DNA of 64,000 bases from a phage: the NCBI GenBank assembly GCA_014161675.1, contig GCA_014161675.1_4760.1. The stretch is one strand, 5' to 3'. This document shows, in pieces, positions 3,093-64,000 of this stretch. Every line of letters starts with the position of its first letter. Position 1 is the stretch's first letter. The notes under the pieces were generated by a model. That model was not told the DNA's origin. It worked only from the letters and a program-made list of their open reading frames with translations, and made no database searches. Position numbers and translations under genes: made by a program.

Positions 3093-3566
3093 CTATTTGT
3101 TAAGCCCTTTAAAGCCAAACACTTTCTTTAATGCATGTTCGGTTATGATCTTAAACTCCATGTTATGCTTTTGGCATAATTTCACGGCAGCTAACCATTT
3201 TTCAGTATTTTTTGTGTACGTCCATACTTCATGCATATATCGTTGCTTTGTCTTCGCGGTCATTCTTTTTGGCTTTTCCGGTGGCCTTGTCTCTTTAGCT
3301 GGTTTAACTTCCCATAAATGCTCCTTGCCATCATCAAACTTAACGTAAAAATCCATAAAGTATCTGTGTCTTTTCCCGTCTGTTGATGACTCATAAGGAA
3401 TTACTACGGTCTCAGATCCCCATTTTGCAACTCTAGGATTGCGGTCTAGCCACTGCATGATCCATCTTTCCCAGCTTGAACGGTATGTGATCTTACGTAT
3501 ATCCCCTTTATACTTTTCCTTATTCTCAGGAACATACTTGCCCTTATAAGTGTTAGATCCTCCCAT
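3093..3566 (-). CDS. 4: Head completion protein (gp4)
   Basis: 157 aa ORF between gene 2 and divergently transcribed gene 53 as in T4. Confidence 0.8.
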   Translation of the reverse strand: MGGSNTYKGKYVPENKEKYKGDIRKITYRSSWERWIMQWLDRNPRVAKWGSETVVIPYESSTDGKRHRYFMDFYVKFDDGKEHLWEVKPAKETRPPEKPKRMTAKTKQRYMHEVWTYTKNTEKWLAAVKLCQKHNMEFKIITEHALKKVFGFKGLNK

Positions 3567-3581
3567 TTTAGCACCCTTTAT

Positions 3582-3589
3582 TATAAATA
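3582..3589 (+). promoter_or_regulatory. T4-type late promoter (TATAAATA) for gene 53 / gene 5 operon
   Basis: Exact TATAAATA ~30 nt upstream of gene 53 ATG, embedded in an inverted repeat (AGCACCCT...AGGGTGCT). Confidence 0.6.
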
Positions 3590-3621
3590 CATAATACTAT
3601 TTATCAATTGAGGGTGCTAAA

Positions 3622-4176
3622 ATGCTCTTTTCTTTCTTCCCTGCCATTGAATACAACGGCAAGATGATTACTGACATTGTGCGCAATTACCGCGCATATT
3701 TCAACGCAATAATTTCCGATTATAACATACAAACATATTACATTCAAGGTAGTCCACGACCGGAACAAGTTGCATATGAAGTATACGGAAACCAACAACT
3801 TTATTGGATCTTGCTGATGCTTAATGACGTATACGATCCGTTCCATGACTGGATCACCGATCAAGAGACAGCATATGAATCAGCCGAACAACGATATGCA
3901 AACGTAGGAGGAAATCAAGTATTATACCACGTTGATATTGACGGAAACAAGTATTGGAATCTTACCGAATATCCGAAAGGATCAAGCAATTGGTATGATA
4001 AAGGGGATATTCATCATCGTCATTTGCAGTTTCAAGGTGCACTATCGGCAGTAGACACACTGGAAGATGCGATCCTCCGCAATGAGGAACGACGCAAGAT
4101 CAAGATCATAGATCCTACACAAATTAAACAATTTATTAACGCATTCATTCGAGAAATGGAAAAGGCTGATGTGTAA
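3622..4176 (+). CDS. 53: Baseplate wedge protein gp53
   Basis: Strong similarity to T4 gp53 (MLF(S/T)FF..IEY..., YYI(Q/K)GSPRPE, QLYW(I/V)LLM.ND.YDP motifs). Confidence 0.9.
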   Translation: MLFSFFPAIEYNGKMITDIVRNYRAYFNAIISDYNIQTYYIQGSPRPEQVAYEVYGNQQLYWILLMLNDVYDPFHDWITDQETAYESAEQRYANVGGNQVLYHVDIDGNKYWNLTEYPKGSSNWYDKGDIHHRHLQFQGALSAVDTLEDAILRNEERRKIKIIDPTQIKQFINAFIREMEKADV

Positions 4177-4187
4177 GGTGATTAATT

Positions 4188-5987
4188 ATGCTAATGTTTA
4201 ATAACTCCGTTAAATGGTTTACCGGAATTGTAGAAAACAGGGAAGACCCATTAATGCTGGGGCGTGTTCAGGTTAGGATTCATGGTATACATCCCTCGCT
4301 ATCCGCGCACGGTGACATTCAAGGTCTTCCAACCGAAGATCTATTATGGATTACGCCAGTACAAGATATTACAAGCGCGGCGATCTCCGGTATCGGTCAA
4401 AGCCCTACTGGTATTGTTGAAGGTTCAATGGTATTTGGTTTGGCTTTAGATGAACGTTATTTAAACTGCGTTATTCTTGGTACTATTGCCGGACAATATA
4501 CAGAGAAACCACTCACTACAGAGGGTTTTTGTGACCCTTCTGGTGCATATCCTCGTTATATTGGTAATGATGTTAATATTCTTGCTCGTGGCGGTATTAA
4601 CCCAGAAACCGGACAAACAACAAAACCTGATAGTGTCTATATTCGAGATGAAAACACTGGAGTTGCAGTAAATCCAGACGACGAGCCATTAGACCAAATT
4701 CCGGTTGATGATAATCCTGATTTTACAATAGAAAAAATGCTGCGGGGCGATGAGGGATATCGCGAGAAATGGTATCTTGATTCAGAAGGATATCCGACAA
4801 TAGGCATCGGGCATTTGATCATTTATAAGAAAACCAGTGATCTTGGTATTATCAATAATGAACTTTCTAAGCTGGTAGGGCGTGAAGTTACAAACGGAAG
4901 ACTTACCGCCGAAGAAGTTAGTAAAGTATTTGCTGACGATATAGAAAAGACTCGTCGTGATATGCGCAAACATCCACGAATTGCACCTGTCTATAATAAA
5001 TGTAATGCCTCACGTCGTATGGCATTAGAAAATATGGCGTTTCAAATGGGTGTTGGTGGATTGGGTAAATTTAAGAATAGTCTTGCTGCGATGTTAGCGG
5101 AAGAATGGAAACAAGCCTATGATGGATTACGTCAATCGGTATGGGCTAACCAAACTCCAGGACGCTCCAGCCGTGTTTCTAAAATTATTTTAACTGGTAA
5201 CTTAGAATCATATGGCGTAATTGCTCCAAAGAAAGAGGAATCAATTTCTGATGATCCGCGAGCACGTTTAAGAAATGCCCGTATTGCGGCCTATAAGACG
5301 CAGAGAGCAGAAGAAGACCCAGAAGCACCGTTTACCCCACAAGACACACGAATCATGTTTAAAGAGCCTAAGAGTTCGTATTCTGCAAGGTATCCTTATA
5401 ACCATGTGTACGAGTCAGAGAGCGGTCATATTATCGAGATTGATGATACTCCTTCTCATGAGCGATATCATCGTAAACATCCTTCTGGTACATTTGAAGA
5501 AACCAGACCGGACGGAACGAGGGTAGAAAAGATTGAAGGCGATGATTATCTGATCGTTAAACAAGGCCGGAAAGTAAACGTTAAGGGTAATTTGCAAGTT
5601 GTTGTTGAAGGTGACGCGCAAGTTTATTATATGGGTAATGTGATGCAAACCGTTGATGGTAACGTCACGGAATTTATTCGTGGTAATGTTAATCAGACCG
5701 TTGAGGGTACAGCTAATATGCATGTTGTAGGTGATGTTACCGCTCAGCTTGACGCTAATTTAACGGCTAACGTCAAGGGTAATGCTGAATTAATGATCGA
5801 GGGTAACACTACCGAAACAATTAAAGGTAACTATGATTTAACCGTTGAGGGTAATTTTAATATGACCGTCAATGGCACGAAATCAGATCAGGTTAATGGT
5901 GACTGGTCCCGTAATTGTGGTGCAAGCGTTAAAGATATTGCATCTGGTACAGTTAAAATTGATGGTAGCCGTATTGATCTTGGGTGA
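4188..5987 (+). CDS. 5: Baseplate hub / cell-puncturing spike with lysozyme domain (gp5)
   Basis: Internal T4-lysozyme-like segment (EGYPTIGIGHLI) and C-terminal VxGxxxxx octapeptide beta-helix repeats. Confidence 0.9.
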   Translation: MLMFNNSVKWFTGIVENREDPLMLGRVQVRIHGIHPSLSAHGDIQGLPTEDLLWITPVQDITSAAISGIGQSPTGIVEGSMVFGLALDERYLNCVILGTIAGQYTEKPLTTEGFCDPSGAYPRYIGNDVNILARGGINPETGQTTKPDSVYIRDENTGVAVNPDDEPLDQIPVDDNPDFTIEKMLRGDEGYREKWYLDSEGYPTIGIGHLIIYKKTSDLGIINNELSKLVGREVTNGRLTAEEVSKVFADDIEKTRRDMRKHPRIAPVYNKCNASRRMALENMAFQMGVGGLGKFKNSLAAMLAEEWKQAYDGLRQSVWANQTPGRSSRVSKIILTGNLESYGVIAPKKEESISDDPRARLRNARIAAYKTQRAEEDPEAPFTPQDTRIMFKEPKSSYSARYPYNHVYESESGHIIEIDDTPSHERYHRKHPSGTFEETRPDGTRVEKIEGDDYLIVKQGRKVNVKGNLQVVVEGDAQVYYMGNVMQTVDGNVTEFIRGNVNQTVEGTANMHVVGDVTAQLDANLTANVKGNAELMIEGNTTETIKGNYDLTVEGNFNMTVNGTKSDQVNGDWSRNCGASVKDIASGTVKIDGSRIDLG

Positions 5988-5995
5988 GGTAACTA

Positions 5996-6562
5996 ATGGT
6001 TGAAATTCTTCCGATGAGTTCAAAATTGGAGGATATCAGCGAGCGAGAAATCTTTGAGGTGGTGTTCTCTTATAAAGCAACGCCACCGGATGCAAATACC
6101 ACATACACGATTAAAGAGTTTAAGATCAGCGAGTATCGCCCTAATAAGGGCGTTACCGTTGAAGAAACTAAAATATCTGGTGAGTATCGGGATAGTTTTT
6201 CGCTTGGCGCGGATTCTCTTAAATATATAACGAAAGATCGAATTAAAAAATCTGCCGGAAGTTTTGATGATTTACCAGATCCAACTACCGCAGATCTATA
6301 TTATTTTAACGCTCCTACACGTCTACAGGAGGTTTATACTTATAAAGTAACCCTAACCTATATCCAATCTGTTTCAGAGTCTTCTGGTGGTTCTGGTGAA
6401 GGAAATATTGGTGGTTCCAATAGCCGAGAGGGTGCTGGTGAAACTAATCCGCCTCCGGTAGTAACCGAGCACACAATAGAGAAAGTTTATACTCAAACCG
6501 TTTTTGGAAATTGGGATGTGTGGAGTAAACAGTTAAGAGATTATGTACATAGGGGTGTTTAA
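5996..6562 (+). CDS. 5.1: Hypothetical protein in gp5.1 position
   Basis: 188 aa ORF between gene 5 and the PAAR gene as in T4. Confidence 0.55.
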
Positions 6563-55056: not shown

Positions 55057-55092
55057 TTGATACTCCTTAGTAGTTCGTTTCGGTATGGGTGT

Positions 55093-57501: not shown

Positions 57502-57515
57502 CACTTTTTATAAAA

Positions 57516-57683
57516 TTATTTGTTAATTTCTGGTGCGTTGCTAGGATAGTAACCTTCTTTAACTCCGAGGTATTTCGCAACCATCCCTACAATCTTCTGT
57601 GCTACTACAATGTCAAATTTCAGATAATCTTCGCCGTGGGTTTCAATGATATATGCTTCACATGCTGCTTTAGTCTCGAACAT
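57516..57683 (-). CDS. Hypothetical small protein (55 aa), paralog of 60774..60941
   Basis: MFETKAACEAYIIETHGEDYLKFDIVVAQKIVGMVAKYLGVKEGYYPSNAPEINK; ~85% DNA identity to the second copy. Confidence 0.5.
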   Translation of the reverse strand: MFETKAACEAYIIETHGEDYLKFDIVVAQKIVGMVAKYLGVKEGYYPSNAPEINK

Positions 57684-57716
57684 TTTGATTCTCCTATTTC
57701 GTTTCGGTATGTGTGT

Positions 57717-57745
57717 ATTATAGGGGATCTCCTGATCCCCGTCAA
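57717..57745 (-). promoter_or_regulatory. Sigma70-type promoter cassette (minus strand)
   Basis: Minus-strand TTGACG-17-TATAAT with palindromic GGGGATC...GATCCCC spacer. Confidence 0.6.
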
Positions 57746-57759
57746 CAACTTTTTTAAAA

Positions 57760-58041
57760 TTATTCGTGATTAGTTTCGATGTTGTGCATTTTGCACCAGT
57801 TCAGCCAATCACCCAGATCCTGATAGCTAATGCTTTTATCTGCTGCCATCGTTTTTGTCTTGATACCCATATGTGCGTTATGAGTAAGCATTTTTACAGT
57901 GAACTCAATTTTATCACCTTTAGCTTTAACATCAACCAGTTTGGTCCACTGGCTACCAGCGCCGCGAATGTTCATACCAACGATGTTTCCGATGTATGCT
58001 TCTTTGTTTTTCAGGATTTCGGTTGCTTTGATGAATTTCAT
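57760..58041 (-). CDS. Hypothetical small protein
   Basis: 93 aa ORF with own promoter cassette. Confidence 0.5.
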   Translation of the reverse strand: MKFIKATEILKNKEAYIGNIVGMNIRGAGSQWTKLVDVKAKGDKIEFTVKMLTHNAHMGIKTKTMAADKSISYQDLGDWLNWCKMHNIETNHE

Positions 58042-58074
58042 TTTTGATTCTCCAGTTCGTTTCGGTATGTGTGT

Positions 58075-58103
58075 ATTATGCTATGTTCTTACTTTGGTGT
58101 CAA
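58075..58103 (-). promoter_or_regulatory. Sigma70-type promoter cassette (minus strand)
   Basis: Minus-strand TTGACA-17-CATAAT. Confidence 0.55.
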
Positions 58104-58111
58104 CAACTTTT

Positions 58112-58381
58112 TTAGATATTTTCAGAAATAAATTTTAAAACTTGACGTAAATGTTTCTCATCTTTGATGGTAGCCGGAAGTTCTTCTTTTACTTCCTGTG
58201 CAAGATAGATATTTCCGTTCCAAGTGAAAGATCCGTCTTCGTTTACGCGATAGCTGAACATCCACTCGCAATCATTTTCGATTTCATATACACACAGAAG
58301 GGTGTAATCGTTAAAGCTATTGATTTCAAGGTCGAAGCCGTGACGTTTTGCAAAGTTGGTAGTGGTTTTAGTCAGTGTCAT
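58112..58381 (-). CDS. Hypothetical small protein
   Basis: 89 aa ORF with own promoter cassette. Confidence 0.5.
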   Translation of the reverse strand: MTLTKTTTNFAKRHGFDLEINSFNDYTLLCVYEIENDCEWMFSYRVNEDGSFTWNGNIYLAQEVKEELPATIKDEKHLRQVLKFISENI

Positions 58382-58421
58382 TGTTTGATTCTCCTAAGTG
58401 GTATCTCGTTTCGATGTGTGT

Positions 58422-58450
58422 ATTATGCTATAGGCCGGATCTGGTGTCAA
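58422..58450 (-). promoter_or_regulatory. Sigma70-type promoter cassette (minus strand)
   Basis: Minus-strand TTGACA-17-CATAAT. Confidence 0.55.
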
Positions 58451-58467
58451 CAACTTTTTTAAAAATT

Positions 58468-58492
58468 TGGGCAATAAAAAGCCGACACTAAG
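58468..58492 (-). terminator. Rho-independent terminator (minus strand) after ORF 58507..58815
   Basis: Minus-strand AGCCGACC-uuag-UGUCGGCU followed by UUUUAUUG. Confidence 0.55.
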
Positions 58493-58506
58493 GTCGGCTA
58501 ATAAAA

Positions 58507-58815
58507 TCATTTAGACAAATAATCATTCTGTGCAATCCGGTCAGCATGTTCCGGCGTTACGTCAATCGCAATCACTTTAACGCGTGCTTTCTTGCGACCT
58601 GGGTTTTCTCGTAACCAGTGCTCATGACCGTGAACATTTTTATACTGCGATGCTTCTTCGAAGGTACGGATCGGACCTGGGTAATCAGCGTAAAGGATCT
58701 CTAGATCTTCGGTGATGTAAAAATATACATCGTAATTGCTGTTCTCTAGCTTAAGCAGAGACTTTCGGAACATTGGGAGATTTTCGCGGGTAAATTCAAA
58801 GATATTATCTTTCAT
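58507..58815 (-). CDS. HxHW-family small protein, paralog A1
   Basis: 102 aa; YFYITEDLEI ... HGHEHW ... VIAIDV shared with five paralogs. Confidence 0.55.
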   Translation of the reverse strand: MKDNIFEFTRENLPMFRKSLLKLENSNYDVYFYITEDLEILYADYPGPIRTFEEASQYKNVHGHEHWLRENPGRKKARVKVIAIDVTPEHADRIAQNDYLSK

Positions 58816-58839
58816 AGTATTATCCTCAATAGTTGGATG

Positions 58840-58860
58840 AAAAGGGGGCTTAACGCCCCC
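58840..58860 (-). terminator. Rho-independent terminator (minus strand) after ORF 58866..59153
   Basis: Minus-strand GGGGGCG-uuaag-CCCCC followed by UUUUCA. Confidence 0.55.
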
Positions 58861-58865
58861 ATATA

Positions 58866-59153
58866 TTAAAACAGCCCTTCCTGTACACCGTAGTAGAGTT
58901 CGTCACTGATAATTTCATTAATGCGACGGTGTGCATATTCCTGATTTGCGAAGTTGTCAGCAAGTTCTACTTTAGTTTCGCCGTCATGAGTCCATTTAGT
59001 GATAACTTTACCATCTGCAAATTTGAAGTTGAACTCTTTAGCTACTGCATCGCGTACCAGACGTGCGAACTTGTTGTTACGGATTGCATTGTCTGTTTCG
59101 TTTGCAGCGTGAGCAAATTTGTTAACTTTCAGAGTGATAGTAATGTATGCCAT
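58866..59153 (-). CDS. Hypothetical small protein
   Basis: 95 aa ORF with own promoter cassette. Confidence 0.5.
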   Translation of the reverse strand: MAYITITLKVNKFAHAANETDNAIRNNKFARLVRDAVAKEFNFKFADGKVITKWTHDGETKVELADNFANQEYAHRRINEIISDELYYGVQEGLF

Positions 59154-59199
59154 AATTTGATTCTCCTAGTTAGAAAGTGTATATCGTTTCGATGGGGAT

Positions 59200-59228
59200 A
59201 TTATGCTATATCCCCGATCCGGTGTCAA
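59200..59228 (-). promoter_or_regulatory. Sigma70-type promoter cassette (minus strand)
   Basis: Minus-strand TTGACA-17-CATAAT with CCGGATCGGGGA...TCCCC palindromic spacer. Confidence 0.55.
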
Positions 59229-59234
59229 CACTTT

Positions 59235-59528
59235 TTATAAAATAATTTTTTGATATTTTTCTATGATGTTCGTGTAAGTCACATCAACCGCTAGCACCGT
59301 TGCTTCGAATCCACCGTTTAGCCAATGGCTATGATCATGATCGTGAAAGAAACCTAGACCAGTACGAAGACCTTCTTTATATTCTGCGCGTACATTCAGT
59401 TTGTCGTCGATAAACAGATAAAACCATGAATTTTTACTAGGATTGATGATACAACCTTTCAGATTAGGGAGAATATCACGACTAAGAATAAACTTATCAC
59501 CTACTTTGAACATAATATTAGTCCTCAC
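59235..59528 (-). CDS. HxHW-family small protein, paralog A2
   Basis: FYLFIDDKLNV ... HDHDHSHW ... VLAVDV. Confidence 0.55.
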   Translation of the reverse strand: MRTNIMFKVGDKFILSRDILPNLKGCIINPSKNSWFYLFIDDKLNVRAEYKEGLRTGLGFFHDHDHSHWLNGGFEATVLAVDVTYTNIIEKYQKIIL

Positions 59529-59838
59529 TTATAAGGTCAAACCAATTGTTTTTCGCATAATGCTTAATGCGTGCTTGATCTGCTTCCGCTGGTGATAGAT
59601 TCCATGCAACCACTACAACTTCTGACGCATCGTCATCCGTTTCTGATACCCAATGATTGTGATTCATACAGTTATTTGCTATCGAGTGAGCAAATGATTT
59701 CATCACTGGAGACGTATAATCATAGTAACGGATTTTCAGATTTTCATCAACGTACAAATAGATCGTATAAGGTTTATATTCAGTAACCAGTAACAGACAG
59801 TTACGCAATTCTGGGAAAATATTTTTAGTTAATTTCAT
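59518..59838 (-). CDS. HxHW-family small protein, paralog A3
   Basis: IYLYVDENLKI ... NHNHW ... VVVVAWNL. Confidence 0.5.
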   Translation of the reverse strand: MKLTKNIFPELRNCLLLVTEYKPYTIYLYVDENLKIRYYDYTSPVMKSFAHSIANNCMNHNHWVSETDDDASEVVVVAWNLSPAEADQARIKHYAKNNWFDLISED

Positions 59839-60052
59839 ATTCTAGTTCTCCGTAATACACGGTAATCCATTTTTCTTCATACTTTGTATCTTTCCAACAC
59901 ACAATCCCGTTTACTGTGCAATCTTTGGAATTGACGAATGATTCATATTGTTCTGCATCTTCCATCATTGCATGAGCGGTCTTTTCATCGAATATATCGC
60001 AGATCGCTTTATATGCTCGATAATCTTTAAATTTGCTCATAATTAAGACCAC
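59825..60052 (-). CDS. Hypothetical small protein, paralog B1
   Basis: MSKFKDYRAYKAI...MMEDAEQ...GIVCWK shared with B2. Confidence 0.5.
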   Translation of the reverse strand: MVLIMSKFKDYRAYKAICDIFDEKTAHAMMEDAEQYESFVNSKDCTVNGIVCWKDTKYEEKWITVYYGELEYEIN

Positions 60053-60258
60053 TCAAGAGTTTTTGAAAACACATCTATCCATTGTTGAGTATATGCGGTT
60101 TCTTTCCATGATACAATACCAGTCGAATAATGGTTTTTGTTTCCAGAAAAGGACGGGCATTTTGAGGCATCTTCCATCATCTTTTCGGCGAACTCTGGTG
60201 CGTATACTCGCAGGATCTGTTGATATGCTTTGTATTCTTTAAATTTGCTCATAATCAT
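60043..60258 (-). CDS. Hypothetical small protein, paralog B2 (tandem duplicate of B1)
   Basis: MSKFKEYKAYQQI...MMEDASK...GIVSWK. Confidence 0.5.
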   Translation of the reverse strand: MIMSKFKEYKAYQQILRVYAPEFAEKMMEDASKCPSFSGNKNHYSTGIVSWKETAYTQQWIDVFSKTLEWS

Positions 60259-60517
60259 TCACTACCTTATCAGCTTCTTTTGTTGTTTTTACATCAACTG
60301 CGATAACTCGTAAAGGTTCGTCATGGTTCCACCAGTGGTCATGAATATCAGCTTGTGATTTATCACCAAAGGAATCACGAATATCATTTTTACATTTATA
60401 GCTAATGTGACCTTCATAGTCAACATAAAGGTAATTATCGAAAATCGGCGTTTTTAAGATCATACCGAAAAATCTTTCTTTGTGTGTCTTATCCAGCGTT
60501 GCAGTAATTCGCATCAT
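60239..60517 (-). CDS. HxHW-family small protein, paralog A4
   Basis: YLYVDYEGHI ... IHDHW ... VIAVDV. Confidence 0.55.
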   Translation of the reverse strand: MMRITATLDKTHKERFFGMILKTPIFDNYLYVDYEGHISYKCKNDIRDSFGDKSQADIHDHWWNHDEPLRVIAVDVKTTKEADKVVNDYEQI

Positions 60518-60529
60518 AATATATTCCTC

Positions 60530-60709
60530 TTAGAAAGGGATGGTCATTTCTTGAGCTTGTACGTTCTCGTTAGGATTAAACTTCATCCAGCCGATATTGT
60601 CTACCAGCATATGCACATTTTTATCATATCCTACGTGGGTAGTCAATACTGTATGTGCTTTACCTTCAATGATGAGTTCCATGTACTTCTGAACTTCGAT
60701 AGCTTTCAT
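60530..60709 (-). CDS. Hypothetical small protein (59 aa)
   Basis: ATG preceded by AGGAGAATCAAA and a promoter cassette; below ORF-track cutoff. Confidence 0.4.
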   Translation of the reverse strand: MKAIEVQKYMELIIEGKAHTVLTTHVGYDKNVHMLVDNIGWMKFNPNENVQAQEMTIPF

Positions 60710-60741
60710 TTTGATTCTCCGTTTGTTGTCTTGATGGGAGT

Positions 60742-60770
60742 ATCTTACTACTCCCTTTAATCATTGTCAA
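60742..60770 (-). promoter_or_regulatory. Sigma70-type promoter cassette (weaker -10)
   Basis: Minus-strand TTGACA-17-TAAGAT with GGGAG...CTCCC palindromic spacer. Confidence 0.45.
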
Positions 60771-60773
60771 CTA

Positions 60774-60941
60774 TTATTTGTTAATTTCTGGTGCGTTGCT
60801 CGGATAGTAACCTTCTTTAACACCCAGATATTTTGCGACCATTCCGGTGATCTTCTGTGCTACTACGATATCGAATTTCAGGTAATCTTCACCGTGGTTT
60901 GCTACAATGTATGCTTCGCATTCTGCTTTAGTCTGGAACAT
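60774..60941 (-). CDS. Hypothetical small protein (55 aa), paralog of 57516..57683
   Basis: MFQTKAECEAYIVANHGEDYLKFDIVVAQKITGMVAKYLGVKEGYYPSNAPEINK; start taken at internal Met supported by RBS and by the paralog. Confidence 0.5.
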   Translation of the reverse strand: MFQTKAECEAYIVANHGEDYLKFDIVVAQKITGMVAKYLGVKEGYYPSNAPEINK

Positions 60942-60974
60942 TTTTATTCTCCCATATCTCGTTGGTATGTGTGC

Positions 60975-61003
60975 ATTATAGGGGATCACCGATCCCCTGT
61001 CAA
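60975..61003 (-). promoter_or_regulatory. Sigma70-type promoter cassette with palindromic spacer
   Basis: Minus-strand TTGACA-GGGGATCGGTGATCCCC-TATAAT. Confidence 0.65.
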
Positions 61004-61008
61004 CAACT

Positions 61009-61302
61009 TTATAATGCTTTATATGCGTATTTCATAAATTTGTCTGCCACTTCATTGGCATGTTCAGATTCTACGCCTGATTCGAGAACAATAGCTAGGT
61101 CGGTTTCGTCATTCCCGCCGTACCAATGATTTGATGTTCGATTTTTTTCAATTGGAAATTGGTCACTTTTATCTGTGCGACAAAATACATCTAAATGCTC
61201 GTCGATGTAAAAGATCCAATCTTCATAAAGAATAACGGTATTAGCCAGATTTTTATTGCCTTCAACGAAAGGTTCGGCTACAAACAAATTAGTATGTTCC
61301 AT
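61009..61302 (-). CDS. HxHW-family small protein, paralog A5 (divergent)
   Basis: WIFYIDEHLDV ... SNHW ... AIVLES. Confidence 0.45.
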   Translation of the reverse strand: MEHTNLFVAEPFVEGNKNLANTVILYEDWIFYIDEHLDVFCRTDKSDQFPIEKNRTSNHWYGGNDETDLAIVLESGVESEHANEVADKFMKYAYKAL

Positions 61303-61359
61303 AGTATTTTCCTCAATTTGTGGGAGAGTATTGCCCCTCCCGATGTCTGTTATATTACA

Positions 61360-61680
61360 TTACACAAAATGGCGTTTCAATGCTTCTTTTGCGGTTCCGC
61401 TAAGACTTTCGATCTCGCCTGGCATAACATCAACTGCCAGAACTTCTACAACATCCTCTGACCCCAACCAGTGAGTATGACCTTTGTAGAACTTGATAAC
61501 CAGACTACCTTCCTCATCCCATTTAACGCTATCGCTAGCCCACCACACATCACCGTCGATAAAGTTGATGTAAAGCACACTACGCCACATTGAATTAATT
61601 ACTTTCAATACTGCGCCTTTCATATCTTCCACGGTGTGGTCTTCCATTTTGAAGACCTCGCCTACCTGAACTTTTGCCAT
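61360..61680 (-). CDS. HxHW-family small protein, paralog A6
   Basis: LYINFIDGDV ... GHTHW ... VLAVDV. Confidence 0.55.
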   Translation of the reverse strand: MAKVQVGEVFKMEDHTVEDMKGAVLKVINSMWRSVLYINFIDGDVWWASDSVKWDEEGSLVIKFYKGHTHWLGSEDVVEVLAVDVMPGEIESLSGTAKEALKRHFV

Positions 61681-61697
61681 TTAGTCACCTCTCTTTA

Positions 61698-61877
61698 TTA
61701 CATAACAATCACGCCAGCCGTTGAAAGTTGATGTTTCAACTGAGCATTTTCTGCTACTGTCAAATCAATGATTTCTTGTGACGCTGCAATCATATAGCCA
61801 TTGGTGATATTGTTTTGCATCAGTTCAATGGTTTCTTCGTTGTAGCGGATTTTAGCGATGATTTCGTTGAAGTTCAT
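61698..61877 (-). CDS. Hypothetical small protein (59 aa)
   Basis: ATG preceded by AGGAGAATCAAAC and promoter cassette; below ORF-track cutoff. Confidence 0.4.
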   Translation of the reverse strand: MNFNEIIAKIRYNEETIELMQNNITNGYMIAASQEIIDLTVAENAQLKHQLSTAGVIVM

Positions 61878-61911
61878 GTTTGATTCTCCTAGTTCGTTTC
61901 GGTATGTGTGT

Positions 61912-61940
61912 AGTATAGGGGATCACCGATCCCCTGTCAA
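61912..61940 (-). promoter_or_regulatory. Sigma70-type promoter cassette with palindromic spacer
   Basis: Minus-strand TTGACA-GGGGATCGGTGATCCCC-TATACT; identical to the cassette at 55340..55368. Confidence 0.65.
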
Positions 61941-61952
61941 CAACTTTTTGAA

Positions 61953-62429
61953 TTATTTTTCTTGATGCTCGCGATCGTACTTTTCGAAATAAAATTCTAC
62001 TGGCTGGTCGTGGATTGACAGCAAGCCAAAGCGTTTAGCCGCTCGCAATCCCATATTGCGCTGAATGTACTTCTGGAAGTTCTCGCGTATACACTTACGC
62101 CAGGATTCTAAGCCCATGCAGCTTTTATAAAGATTGCATTGCACACACGCCGGATTCATGTTATCAAGTATATCATGCTCCGGTTTATGCATTCCTACAA
62201 CCTTATACTTCCACGATCCATCATCATTACGGGCAATTCGTCCATTTTCATCATAGACTACCTTTGAGCGTCGCAATACTGGTTTGATGTGGTCTGCGTG
62301 CCAGCGATCCCCTAGTTCCTCGCCACAATAGGCACAACGTCCACCATATTTCATTTTCAGGATCTGGCGTTGATCTTTCTTTGACAATTTTTTAGGTTTA
62401 GGGGCTTTCGCCCCTTCATTATCACACAT
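61953..62429 (-). CDS. HNH endonuclease (free-standing, putative homing endonuclease)
   Basis: CAYCGEEL...WHADHIKPV...NMNPACVQCNLYK (Cys pairs flanking H-x-D-H and Asn); start overlaps the ligase stop. Confidence 0.7.
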   Translation of the reverse strand: MCDNEGAKAPKPKKLSKKDQRQILKMKYGGRCAYCGEELGDRWHADHIKPVLRRSKVVYDENGRIARNDDGSWKYKVVGMHKPEHDILDNMNPACVQCNLYKSCMGLESWRKCIRENFQKYIQRNMGLRAAKRFGLLSIHDQPVEFYFEKYDREHQEK

Positions 62430-63924
62430 CGAATACCTCTTTTACTGTATTTGCAGTGGTCTTGTCGTAGCGAATACGTTTGATGATTGGGAGAAATAAA
62501 GAGAACTCCGGTTCATCTTCTTTACGTGATTTGCTGCGGATATACCCGTTGCATGTCATCTCAATGACTTTGCCAACCAGGTTATGACGGTCAGCCCATA
62601 ACATTTCTCGGTCGAGTTCATTTCGACGAACGAACGGAATTACACGTTCAGTACCATCATCACCTTTTTCGGTTGTAGTGTCGGTTAATCCCGATCCGGT
62701 GTTAGTCATCATTCGTCCGCACGCACTACGGACAGTAAAACCGCCTACCTTATTGGGGTCTTTACTATGCGGATATACGTCAACAATTTCCGCGTCGAAG
62801 TCAATCACTTCTTTAAATTTAACCTGATCTTTACTACGGCGATCTTCAAATACACCATGTAAATTTTTAAGGATAATACCTTCTAAGCCCATGTTGACAT
62901 AACGATGATATACTTCGCGAGCTTCATCGATATTGTTAACTACAGTATTTTCGATTATCTGAACACGAGGATCGTTAAGTTCTTCAACAATCTGTTTTAG
63001 TTCTTCGAATCGATCTTTATATTGCTTCGTTGCTTTCTCGTTTCCATAATACACATCACGGTCGATAACATCCCAGACAGTGTAAACAATACATTGGGCT
63101 TCTTCTTTTGGAATAGTTCCTTTAAGTGATTTGTTGAGGATACCATTTCCGGTCTGACGATCTGCAACAACGGATTCTTTCACTGCTTCCGCTACTGGCG
63201 TTAATGGCATTTCCTCTTCTTCAAATATCCATGACAGAGTACCATCATAAACGCTCTCAACGAAGTTCTGCGCTGGTGTTTGCGAAAGGGTAGGCATATA
63301 TACCAATTCGCCATCTAGAACAATTCCACGGCCTCGTAGACGCTCTAAAACCGCAAACAAATCATCAAGCCCTTGATAGGTATTACCTGAGCGGGTATAG
63401 ATTGCTAATGTTTCCCCGTCAATATCAGCCATACCACGAGCGCCATCGCTTTTAAGTTGTGCATACGCCGGATACTTGATATTAGCAATAGTCTTATCAG
63501 AACATGACGATGCAAGGTGGCACGGCTGCTGGGGGATCAGTTTCTTCCATACCTTGTTTGCAGTGGTAGCTGAACAGCCGCATTCCAGATCACGATTCAG
63601 GACCATCATTGCAACTTTAGCATCATCCTCTGACAAGCAAGTCAGAGTATCGGTAACTAGCTGTAATGCTGCATTACCAGTTACTTGACGCGTGGCAAGT
63701 TTATTTTTAAAGACCTGTAATGCACCGGATAAAGATAATACAGACGAATAGCGAGATGGTTTATCGTATTTCTTTACGCCAAACGTAACCTGTTTGCAAT
63801 ATGCCAGATAAAAGCATTCTTTCAGCGTTTCATTGCTCGCGGATTCTTTCAGAATCTTTTCTTTCAGCGATGTTTTGTCTGTTGCTGCAAGCTGATTAAT
63901 GATATTAAGAATTGACATTTTCAC
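62422..63924 (-). CDS. 30: ATP-dependent DNA ligase (gp30)
   Basis: Adenylation motif KSDGAR (T4 KADGAR); further identical blocks with T4 ligase (LVYH/M, GIANKSLKGTI..EAQC, GLEGIILKN, KFKEVIDVD). Confidence 0.9.
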   Translation of the reverse strand: MKMSILNIINQLAATDKTSLKEKILKESASNETLKECFYLAYCKQVTFGVKKYDKPSRYSSVLSLSGALQVFKNKLATRQVTGNAALQLVTDTLTCLSEDDAKVAMMVLNRDLECGCSATTANKVWKKLIPQQPCHLASSCSDKTIANIKYPAYAQLKSDGARGMADIDGETLAIYTRSGNTYQGLDDLFAVLERLRGRGIVLDGELVYMPTLSQTPAQNFVESVYDGTLSWIFEEEEMPLTPVAEAVKESVVADRQTGNGILNKSLKGTIPKEEAQCIVYTVWDVIDRDVYYGNEKATKQYKDRFEELKQIVEELNDPRVQIIENTVVNNIDEAREVYHRYVNMGLEGIILKNLHGVFEDRRSKDQVKFKEVIDFDAEIVDVYPHSKDPNKVGGFTVRSACGRMMTNTGSGLTDTTTEKGDDGTERVIPFVRRNELDREMLWADRHNLVGKVIEMTCNGYIRSKSRKEDEPEFSLFLPIIKRIRYDKTTANTVKEVFDV

Positions 63925-64000
63925 CTCGTTTTGTTAAACGTTCACGAATATCATTGAGGATACTACAAAATTCCGATTCAGTCAATATAGTCTTTAACGG
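63905..64000 (-). CDS. Partial CDS (C-terminal 31 codons; gene starts beyond window end), unknown product
   Basis: Open frame entering from the right edge, stop at 63905-63907, overlapping the ligase start by ~20 nt. Confidence 0.3.
   Translation of the reverse strand, partial: PLKTILTESEFCSILNDIRERLTKRGENVNS

Follow-up and report, generated by a model that had tools for sequence, protein, structure and literature searches.

A conserved HNH endonuclease gene directly behind the DNA ligase gene of Krischvirus phages

The 64,000 nt of phage DNA analysed here (GenBank assembly GCA_014161675.1, contig GCA_014161675.1_4760.1; this whole stretch is called the window) belong to a T4-type phage of the genus Krischvirus (the RB49/Phi1/JSE group). 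A megablast search with the region of interest returned 59 phage records at 95–99% identity, all of them Krischvirus (RB49, Phi1, JSE, GEC-3S and others). The window carries an open reading frame (ORF) for an HNH nuclease (nt 61,953–62,429, minus strand; 158 aa, ATG start, taken from the ORF list), directly 3' of gene 30, which encodes the ATP-dependent DNA ligase. An original prediction, made from the sequence alone, interpreted this ORF, with the Mob/Seg homing endonucleases of T4-type phages as background, as a mobile HNH element that targets the ligase region of related phages. The gene is found here to be universal in the genus, deeply syntenic and constrained, and to belong to neither the Mob and Seg families nor that of endonuclease VII. 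Its orthologues are RB49 ORF212, Phi1 ORF212 and JSE EpJSE_00219, for which RefSeq uses the name 'HNH endonuclease' (RB49p212, phi1p212 and the JSE orthologue), and Nolan et al. 2006 (PMC1524935) enter RB49ORF212c in their Table 3 among the 'putative mobile DNA elements', as an HNH endonuclease. Both the gene and the label of a possibly mobile HNH are thus already known from the RB49 literature and RefSeq; no functional study of the Krischvirus HNH was found in the literature.

The translation contains C32-A-Y-C35, H44-A-D-H47, N90/N92 and C95-V-Q-C98-N99, and so bears out the HNH motif first noticed in the 158-aa ORF (CxxC...HADH...N...CxxC). Residues C32, C35, C95 and C98 are the zinc ligands, while D46-H47, N90 and N99 are the predicted catalytic residues, and none of these varies across a family alignment of 91 sequences or among 11 Krischvirus alleles. 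Further invariant positions of the alignment, R111 and F146-x-F148-E149, are found in a C-terminal helical extension. The ORF matches PF01844 (27 bits against a cut-off of 21.4, E = 5e-6) and phrog_2118 (E = 2e-54), and an AlphaFold model built on the same 91 sequences (mean predicted local distance difference test score 94) has an N-terminal zinc HNH followed by C-terminal helices. Profile, motif and fold all place the protein in the HNH/beta-beta-alpha-metal nuclease superfamily, and the ORF is a small stand-alone gene for a zinc-stabilised DNA nuclease of this fold, with the catalytic motif in place. The product would be expected to be an active metal-dependent nickase or nuclease. Foldseek comparison of the model with the PDB gave weak matches alone (all E > 0.04), and a PDB sequence search returned Cas9 and HNH domains, all at E > 0.2; the protein corresponds to a single-domain, zinc-bound HNH of ~130 aa that is most like the domains of Cas9 and McrA. 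A second DNA-binding module was not found in the ORF, PF01844 being the sole Pfam match, and NCBIfam and PADLOC gave sub-threshold generic HNH matches (PtuB, retron HNH, Cas9) and no defence-system assignment.

The ligase gene (nt 62,422–63,924, minus strand; 498–500 aa) starts at a GTG at nt 63,924 in the ORF list, while the ATG at nt 63,918 annotated in relatives gives a protein of 498 aa; it matches PF01068 (3e-22) and phrog_114 (4e-141). The HNH gene is free-standing as originally described, in that it is not intron-encoded and lies directly 3' of an essential gene, and the description needs correction as to strand, which is minus. The junction of the two genes reads ...GAGGTATTCGATGTGTGA (in a fuller reading, AAGAGGTATTCGATGTGTGA). 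An 8-nt overlap, ATGTGTGA (nt 62,422–62,429, minus strand), contains the HNH start codon (ATG, nt 62,429–62,427) and the ligase stop codon (TGA, nt 62,424–62,422) in different frames, and it is unchanged in 15 related sequences. The predicted overlap of start and stop codons is therefore real and 8 nt long, whereas the statement that the HNH gene is 'fused' to the ligase gene does not hold, as these are two separate ORFs in different frames that give no fusion protein. A Shine-Dalgarno sequence, AAGAGG (nt 62,436–62,441, minus strand), is positioned 6 nt before the HNH ATG, within the ligase coding sequence, and a ribosome binding site for HNH is annotated in the Makalu records.

HNH is the final gene of a conserved early block (pseT-cd-31.1-31-30.3-30) and is followed by a run of small ORFs of no assigned role. 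From the start of the ligase gene to that of HNH, sigma-70-like sites score at most 9/12, and neither a late TATAAATA motif on that strand nor a terminator-like site is present. Co-transcription of HNH with the ligase gene is plausible, and the nuclease is probably made from the ligase transcript without a promoter of its own. An RNA hairpin, AGGGGC-GAAA-GCCCCU (nt 62,400–62,415, minus strand; 6-bp stem, GNRA loop), begins 14 nt past the A of the HNH ATG. It is found in both the minimum free energy and the centroid structures (z = -2.7 for an 86-nt segment), and 14 of the 15 relatives compared keep it, a single mismatch being present in phage Cognac. The hairpin falls inside an 8-codon segment (DNEGAKAP) that a more diverged relative, described below, lacks. 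An Rfam scan of nt 58,000–64,000 returned nothing relevant. A Shine-Dalgarno sequence within the ligase gene, start and stop codons that overlap, and a hairpin just downstream together suggest that translation of HNH is coupled to that of the ligase. The hairpin may hinder independent loading of ribosomes on HNH, in which case most HNH translation would come from ribosomes terminating on the ligase, and the nuclease level would then be low. The hairpin could also act to slow translation, or to influence RNA stability where the ligase message ends.

The HNH coding sequence matches 59 records (coverage of at least 97%, nucleotide identity 96.2–99.0%, protein identity 96–99%), and in every one of the 59 complete Krischvirus records the gene is intact, full length and contiguous with the ligase gene. 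About six of these records are GenBank/RefSeq duplicates, so that they stand for ~53 distinct genomes. The ligase gene matches the same 59 records and a 60th, a 1.5-kb RB49 fragment that is cut off within the gene and covers the 5' end of the ligase alone. The orthologues of RB49, Phi1 and JSE share 96–99% protein identity with the window protein, the same place after gene 30 and the same 8-nt overlap, and the differences are trivial. An alternative version of the last 16 nt of the gene is carried by 22 of the 59 records, giving proteins of 157 aa ending in NKE as against 158 aa ending in HQEK; the window has the 158-aa C-terminal variant and RB49 and JSE the 157-aa variant. The substitutions of the window allele that were called private are E19D, Y109S (shared with Phi1) and E152D.

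The original prediction had proposed a comparison with relatives lacking the HNH gene, and none were found in the phage, IMG/VR or metagenome collections. In the phage collection, blastn with the ligase gene returned, beyond the 60 Krischvirus records, matches of at most 70% identity over short pieces and no HNH-less allele. IMG/VR holds two Krischvirus contigs, both with HNH, and the next ligases there are at most 43% identical and have no HNH nearby. A scan of JGI metagenomes with a ligase alignment gave one Krischvirus-like contig and then ligases of at most 41% identity, with no HNH homologue at these distant loci. As no HNH-less allele was present in the three collections, neither a target site nor a polymorphism at such a site can be defined.

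A more distant view is provided by a metagenomic Logan contig (L021), in which the C-terminus of the ligase and the HNH protein are, respectively, 71% and 70% identical in amino acid sequence to those of the window, in the same gene order. The HNH of this lineage (protein P0003, 70% identical) sits on two short Logan contigs (SRR8048111 and SRR8048117). In L021, the two genes overlap by TAATG instead of the 8-nt overlap, and HNH is followed by a terminator-like hairpin and promoter-like sequence. Since L021 keeps the ligase-HNH pair, the pair predates a split across which both proteins have changed by ~30%. Universal presence at the same position in relatives, which the original prediction had itself named as one part of what would refute it, is what was seen, both in the 59 records and in a relative that is ~30% diverged.

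Nei-Gojobori estimates on 11 Krischvirus genomes gave, for HNH, a proportion of synonymous differences (pS) of 0.122 and of nonsynonymous differences (pN) of 0.0029 (pN/pS = 0.023) and, for the ligase, a pS of 0.111 and a pN of 0.0046 (pN/pS = 0.041). Only 5 of the 153 HNH residues compared vary among these genomes, none of them in the motif. When the window is compared with L021, HNH has a nonsynonymous divergence (dN) of 0.24 and the ligase C-terminus one of 0.22, while synonymous divergence (dS) is saturated. Nucleotide diversity is flat over ligase and HNH (0.01–0.06) and is 0.19 just past the HNH stop, while the lowest value of the region (0.012) is that of a 100-nt window spanning the ligase-HNH junction. 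Within the genus, the distances of the two ligase halves correlate at r = 0.03 and those of HNH and ligase at r = 0.37; frequent recombination thus decouples even the halves of the ligase gene, so that tree congruence is unusable. Across the L021 split, HNH and ligase are equally diverged, which argues for vertical descent. A selfish endonuclease at fixation is expected to decay, and the strong constraint on HNH and the lack of decay are therefore unlike a fixed selfish element. These comparisons indicate that HNH has been co-inherited with the ligase gene and kept functional for a long time.

Several odd copies of the gene were seen in addition to the intact alleles. In L057 (a Krischvirus-like 26.5-kb contig of Logan ERR14656784, nt 2501–2830), codon 110 of HNH has changed from TGG (W110) to TAG. 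The codons past the stop are in frame and conserved, and the allele is visibly more diverged than those of the 59 isolates; either the gene was knocked out naturally and recently, or the stop is an artefact of assembly. A second apparently degenerate copy, L037 (MAVA01000210.1, nt 435–1029), has a ligase that is 97% identical, three 1-nt deletions in HNH that coincide with or adjoin short homopolymer runs, followed by an inverted junction to the opposite strand of window nt ~61,630–61,770; it is probably a chimeric or low-quality contig and was rejected. L058 was likewise set aside, as it is a chimeric join near a contig end. The sole decay among the odd copies that might be real is the TGG-to-TAG change of L057.

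The wider family was assessed by a profile search of 1.84 billion representatives, which gave 164 cluster representatives at E <= 1e-30 and 1,544 at E <= 1e-10. Among the best 150 of the 164, most proteins are 110–200 aa long and nearly all cover almost the whole of the 132-position profile. The family consists of small single-domain proteins of phages and prophages with conserved C-terminal helices and without a separate DNA-reading domain. The most identical homologue outside the lineage (47%) belongs to the Morganella T4-like phage vB_Mm5 (L003, nt 5327–6408), where HNH begins on the last base of a glycyl-radical (grcA/vs.6-like) gene. In its relative MP1 (L036, nt 3821–4672), the grcA/vs.6-like gene is followed by a promoter and denV, with no HNH there. 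In T4-type phages, members of the family have landed twice directly behind a conserved gene. A neighbouring 171-aa ORF of vB_Mm5 is annotated as 'terminase large subunit'; it has a weak AAA_14 Pfam match and is probably misnamed.

Temperate phages carry homologues of 35–45% identity in the 'ea' accessory regions of a P22-like and an Stx phage. Both of these adjoin a 72-aa DUF4014 gene annotated as 'acetyltransferase inhibitor', in opposite order (ArgO145, L025 nt 3263–3848; g341c, L026 nt 3483–4120), and HNH and DUF4014 may form a recurring two-gene association. The homologue of phage Sasha is near methylase and ParB genes and that of Bcep176 lies in an early region. The top-scoring homologues from cultured phages outside the genus are those of the E. 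coli siphophages Bas79, Bas80 and HC8A (42.6% identity, E = 1e-30); the Bas79 gene is ~0.8 kb upstream of the large terminase gene, the Bas80 copy has the same record coordinates and the HC8A copy is near the record end. Such a scattered, context-independent family bears the signature of accessory or mobile DNA. The mobile nature put forward in the original prediction is thus supported for the wider family, which is sporadic (vB_Mm5 as against MP1, and the temperate phages), while current mobility in Krischvirus is unsupported.

Three known systems were compared with the window protein. Like the T4 Mob-type enzymes (MobA-E, and the I-TevIII and I-HmuI-like proteins), it is a free-standing HNH beside a conserved essential gene of a T4-type genome and would use the transcript of its neighbour. 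The Mob-type enzymes have an HNH_3 domain and a C-terminal DNA-binding module, whereas the window protein belongs to the PF01844 subfamily, has a CxxC...CxxC zinc site, is most like Cas9 and McrA, and comprises ~130 conserved residues without a second DNA-binding domain; its gene is universal within the genus and not sporadic. Pfam gave no HNH_3 or GIY-YIG match to the ORF at E <= 0.1, tblastn at E <= 1e-3 matched no T4-genus genome although more than 440 such genomes were in the database, and the fold searches returned no I-HmuI or Mob-type structures. Membership of the Mob or Seg families, which the original prediction had brought in as background, is ruled out by these results.

T4 endonuclease VII (gp49) is similar in size (157–158 aa) and layout, with an N-terminal zinc-bound beta-beta-alpha-metal nuclease and then helices. 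Secondary PHROG matches of the HNH ORF are labelled 'endonuclease VII' (phrog_1035 at 5e-10, phrog_2914 at 2e-6), and structural neighbours in BFVD are auto-named 'recombination endonuclease VII'. A search with T4 gp49, however, found a full-length orthologue (45% identical) at a different locus of a Krischvirus genome, and this genuine gp49 rules out the HNH protein as a gp49 orthologue or replacement. The small packaging HNHs of the HK97 gp74 type (structural relatives Gme HNH, 4H9D, and GVE2 HNH, 5H0O) are encoded in packaging modules, whereas the neighbours in the window are the ligase gene and small early ORFs and not terminase or portal genes. The window protein also differs from them by an extra beta-hairpin insert (~residues 53–80) and by its conserved C-terminal helical extension.

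The end of the conserved block is marked by the first 'promoter-early stem-loop' (PeSL) cassette (nt 61,893–61,960, minus strand), which the last 8 nt of the HNH ORF overlap. It consists of TTGACA, a palindrome and TATACT, the palindrome between the two hexamers being GGGGATC-GGT-GATCCCC (nt 61,918–61,934), and the promoter match is 11/12 (nt 61,940–61,912). Cassettes of this type, ~65 nt long, precede most of the small ORFs in the window between nt 55,074 and 61,960, with copies at nt 55,074, 55,321, 57,454, 57,698, 58,056, 58,403, 59,179, 60,956 and 61,893. They form a family of at least eight copies with a near-consensus early promoter (TTGACA...TATACT/TATAAT) and a palindrome between the hexamers, and three of the copies have an exact 28-mer in common, against 0 expected by chance. 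PeSL cassettes have been described as the recombination joints of the hyperplastic regions of RB49 and Phi1 (Arbiol et al. 2010; PMC2839356), and the differences seen among relatives just past HNH (window nt 61,878–61,952, compared with L032 nt 2136–2480 for RB49 and L001 nt 4251–4562 for Phi1) are in line with such a role. The cassette comes directly after the HNH stop in the window, JK32 and SSG23; Phi1 has ORF210 inserted there, and RB49 and JSE have both ORF211 and ORF210 and differ in the last five HNH codons.

Five small ORFs (92–106 aa) 3' of HNH resemble paralogues (nt 59,235–59,528, 59,518–59,838, 60,239–60,517, 61,009–61,302 and 61,360–61,680, all on the minus strand). They have a common C-terminal pattern of H-x-H-W, acidic residues and (A/V)VDV, as in HSHWLNGG...LAVDV, HDHWWNHD...IAVDV and HTHWLGSE...LAVDV. 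Two adjoining ORFs of 71–75 aa (nt 59,825–60,052 and 60,043–60,258, minus strand) have near-identical starts (MSKFKDYRAYKA and MSKFKEYKAYQQ) and appear to be a tandem duplication, with repeat D6 at nt 60,002–60,043 and 60,214–60,255. A 238-nt repeat (nt 57,515–57,752 and 60,773–61,010, 84% identity) represents a duplicated ORF with its cassette.

The explanation preferred here, with a rough probability of 55%, is that HNH was acquired long ago as a nuclease gene that was mobile at one time, and that selection now maintains it in a fixed state. Most likely, the gene would have entered an ancestor of the Krischvirus lineage as mobile or accessory DNA and been placed immediately 3' of gene 30. 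It would then have become fixed, vertically inherited and kept by purifying selection, and would not now be homing into empty sites. Selection would act through some benefit to the phage, the likeliest being the cutting of co-infecting phage DNA that lacks the resident allele, a form of competition or marker exclusion left from a homing past; alternatively, the protein may have a role in the phage's own DNA transactions.

Some points weigh against this explanation. The nuclease activity of the protein, its substrate and its benefit to the phage are all predictions. Overlaps between start and stop codons occur widely in T4-type genomes, and the coupling to the ligase may therefore mean nothing specific. 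An active selfish endonuclease that still meets HNH-less relatives absent from the databases could likewise be under purifying selection. The stop at W110 in L057 may mean that HNH is dispensable at least sometimes. Finally, the GC content at third codon positions is 0.447 in HNH and 0.359 in the ligase gene (nt 62,422–63,918), with an overall window GC of 0.407; this gap amounts to some 2 standard errors and hints, weakly, at a foreign origin of the gene by composition.

A possible but less likely explanation is that the gene is still an active selfish free-standing homing endonuclease, whose target would be the 3' part of gene 30, or its vicinity, in HNH-less genomes; repair of the cut from an HNH-bearing genome would then transfer the gene together with its flanks. 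Its apparent fixation would then reflect a narrow sample of isolates, or action mainly against other T4-type genera in mixed infections. Free-standing homing endonuclease genes of phages usually adjoin conserved genes (PMC2988022, PMC10448857), and the position directly 3' of gene 30, a conserved essential gene, matches their usual sites. The second, independent insertion behind a conserved gene in vB_Mm5, absent from MP1, the scatter of the family in unrelated phages, and the diversity minimum (0.012) at the junction all favour homing, and the purifying selection would suit a still-active enzyme. Against it, the gene is not sporadic among close genomes but present in 59 of 59 and in the 30%-diverged relative, its divergence is that of the ligase, with no sign of horizontal spread, and no empty-site allele near the insertion point occurs in the three collections. 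Characterised homing endonucleases of phages carry a separate sequence-reading module (PMC10448857), whereas the family unit here is a single domain of ~130 aa (PF01844 alone), and it does not resemble the Mob or Seg proteins of T4. The claim that the element now targets the ligase region of related phages found no supporting evidence, the gene being universal, co-diverged with the ligase and without an empty site.

That HNH is a domesticated former homing endonuclease with a phage job tied to its position looks unlikely; it would nick PeSL or competitor DNA and so promote reshuffling of the adjoining hyperplastic region by recombination, or form a nick-and-seal pair with the co-translated ligase. 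It is also rather improbable that the protein is a structure-specific or recombination nuclease that nicks branched or hairpin DNA, such as the PeSL palindromes at its own stop codon, and so feeds the shuffling of the hyperplastic region or backs up endonuclease VII. The 'endonuclease VII' labels of its PHROG matches and BFVD neighbours, a size and general shape like those of T4 gp49, the location of the gene precisely on the edge of the variable, PeSL-rich region, and the temperate-phage homologues in recombination and early regions would suit such a role. Yet a genuine gp49 is already encoded by Krischvirus, HNH in L021 is followed by an ordinary terminator and promoter and not by a PeSL, and proximity is the sole link between HNH and the cassettes.

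A packaging helper of the HK97 gp74 type, working with the terminase in genome cutting, is highly improbable: the Bas79 homologue does lie close upstream of a large terminase gene, and Bas79, Bas80 and HC8A are the top-scoring cultured homologues, but most homologues are not beside a terminase gene and the window HNH is beside the ligase gene in an early region, far from genes 16 and 17. The large terminases of T4-type phages have their own nuclease and package by a headful mechanism, and T4-type packaging needs no helper like HK97 gp74. That the gene is a functionless relic, a dead homing endonuclease gene not yet lost, would fit the premature stop at W110 in one metagenomic variant and the lack of an established function, but it is effectively refuted by the selection analysis (pN/pS ~0.02 in the genus, and dN ~0.24 with dS saturated against L021) and by the ORF being intact in 59 isolates with all catalytic and zinc residues conserved.

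The results add a modest new point to what was known of this gene, namely that it is fixed in the genus and lies beside the ligase gene across a deep split, under a constraint as strong as that on the ligase. This pattern is contrary to the cycle of invasion, fixation and decay predicted for homing endonucleases, and it cautions that a free-standing HNH gene beside an essential gene need not be an active homing element. If domestication were true, HNH would be a clear example, open to dating, of a domesticated nuclease in a T4-type phage, and the gene is a reasonable candidate for studying how selfish nucleases turn into stable, selected residents of phage genomes.

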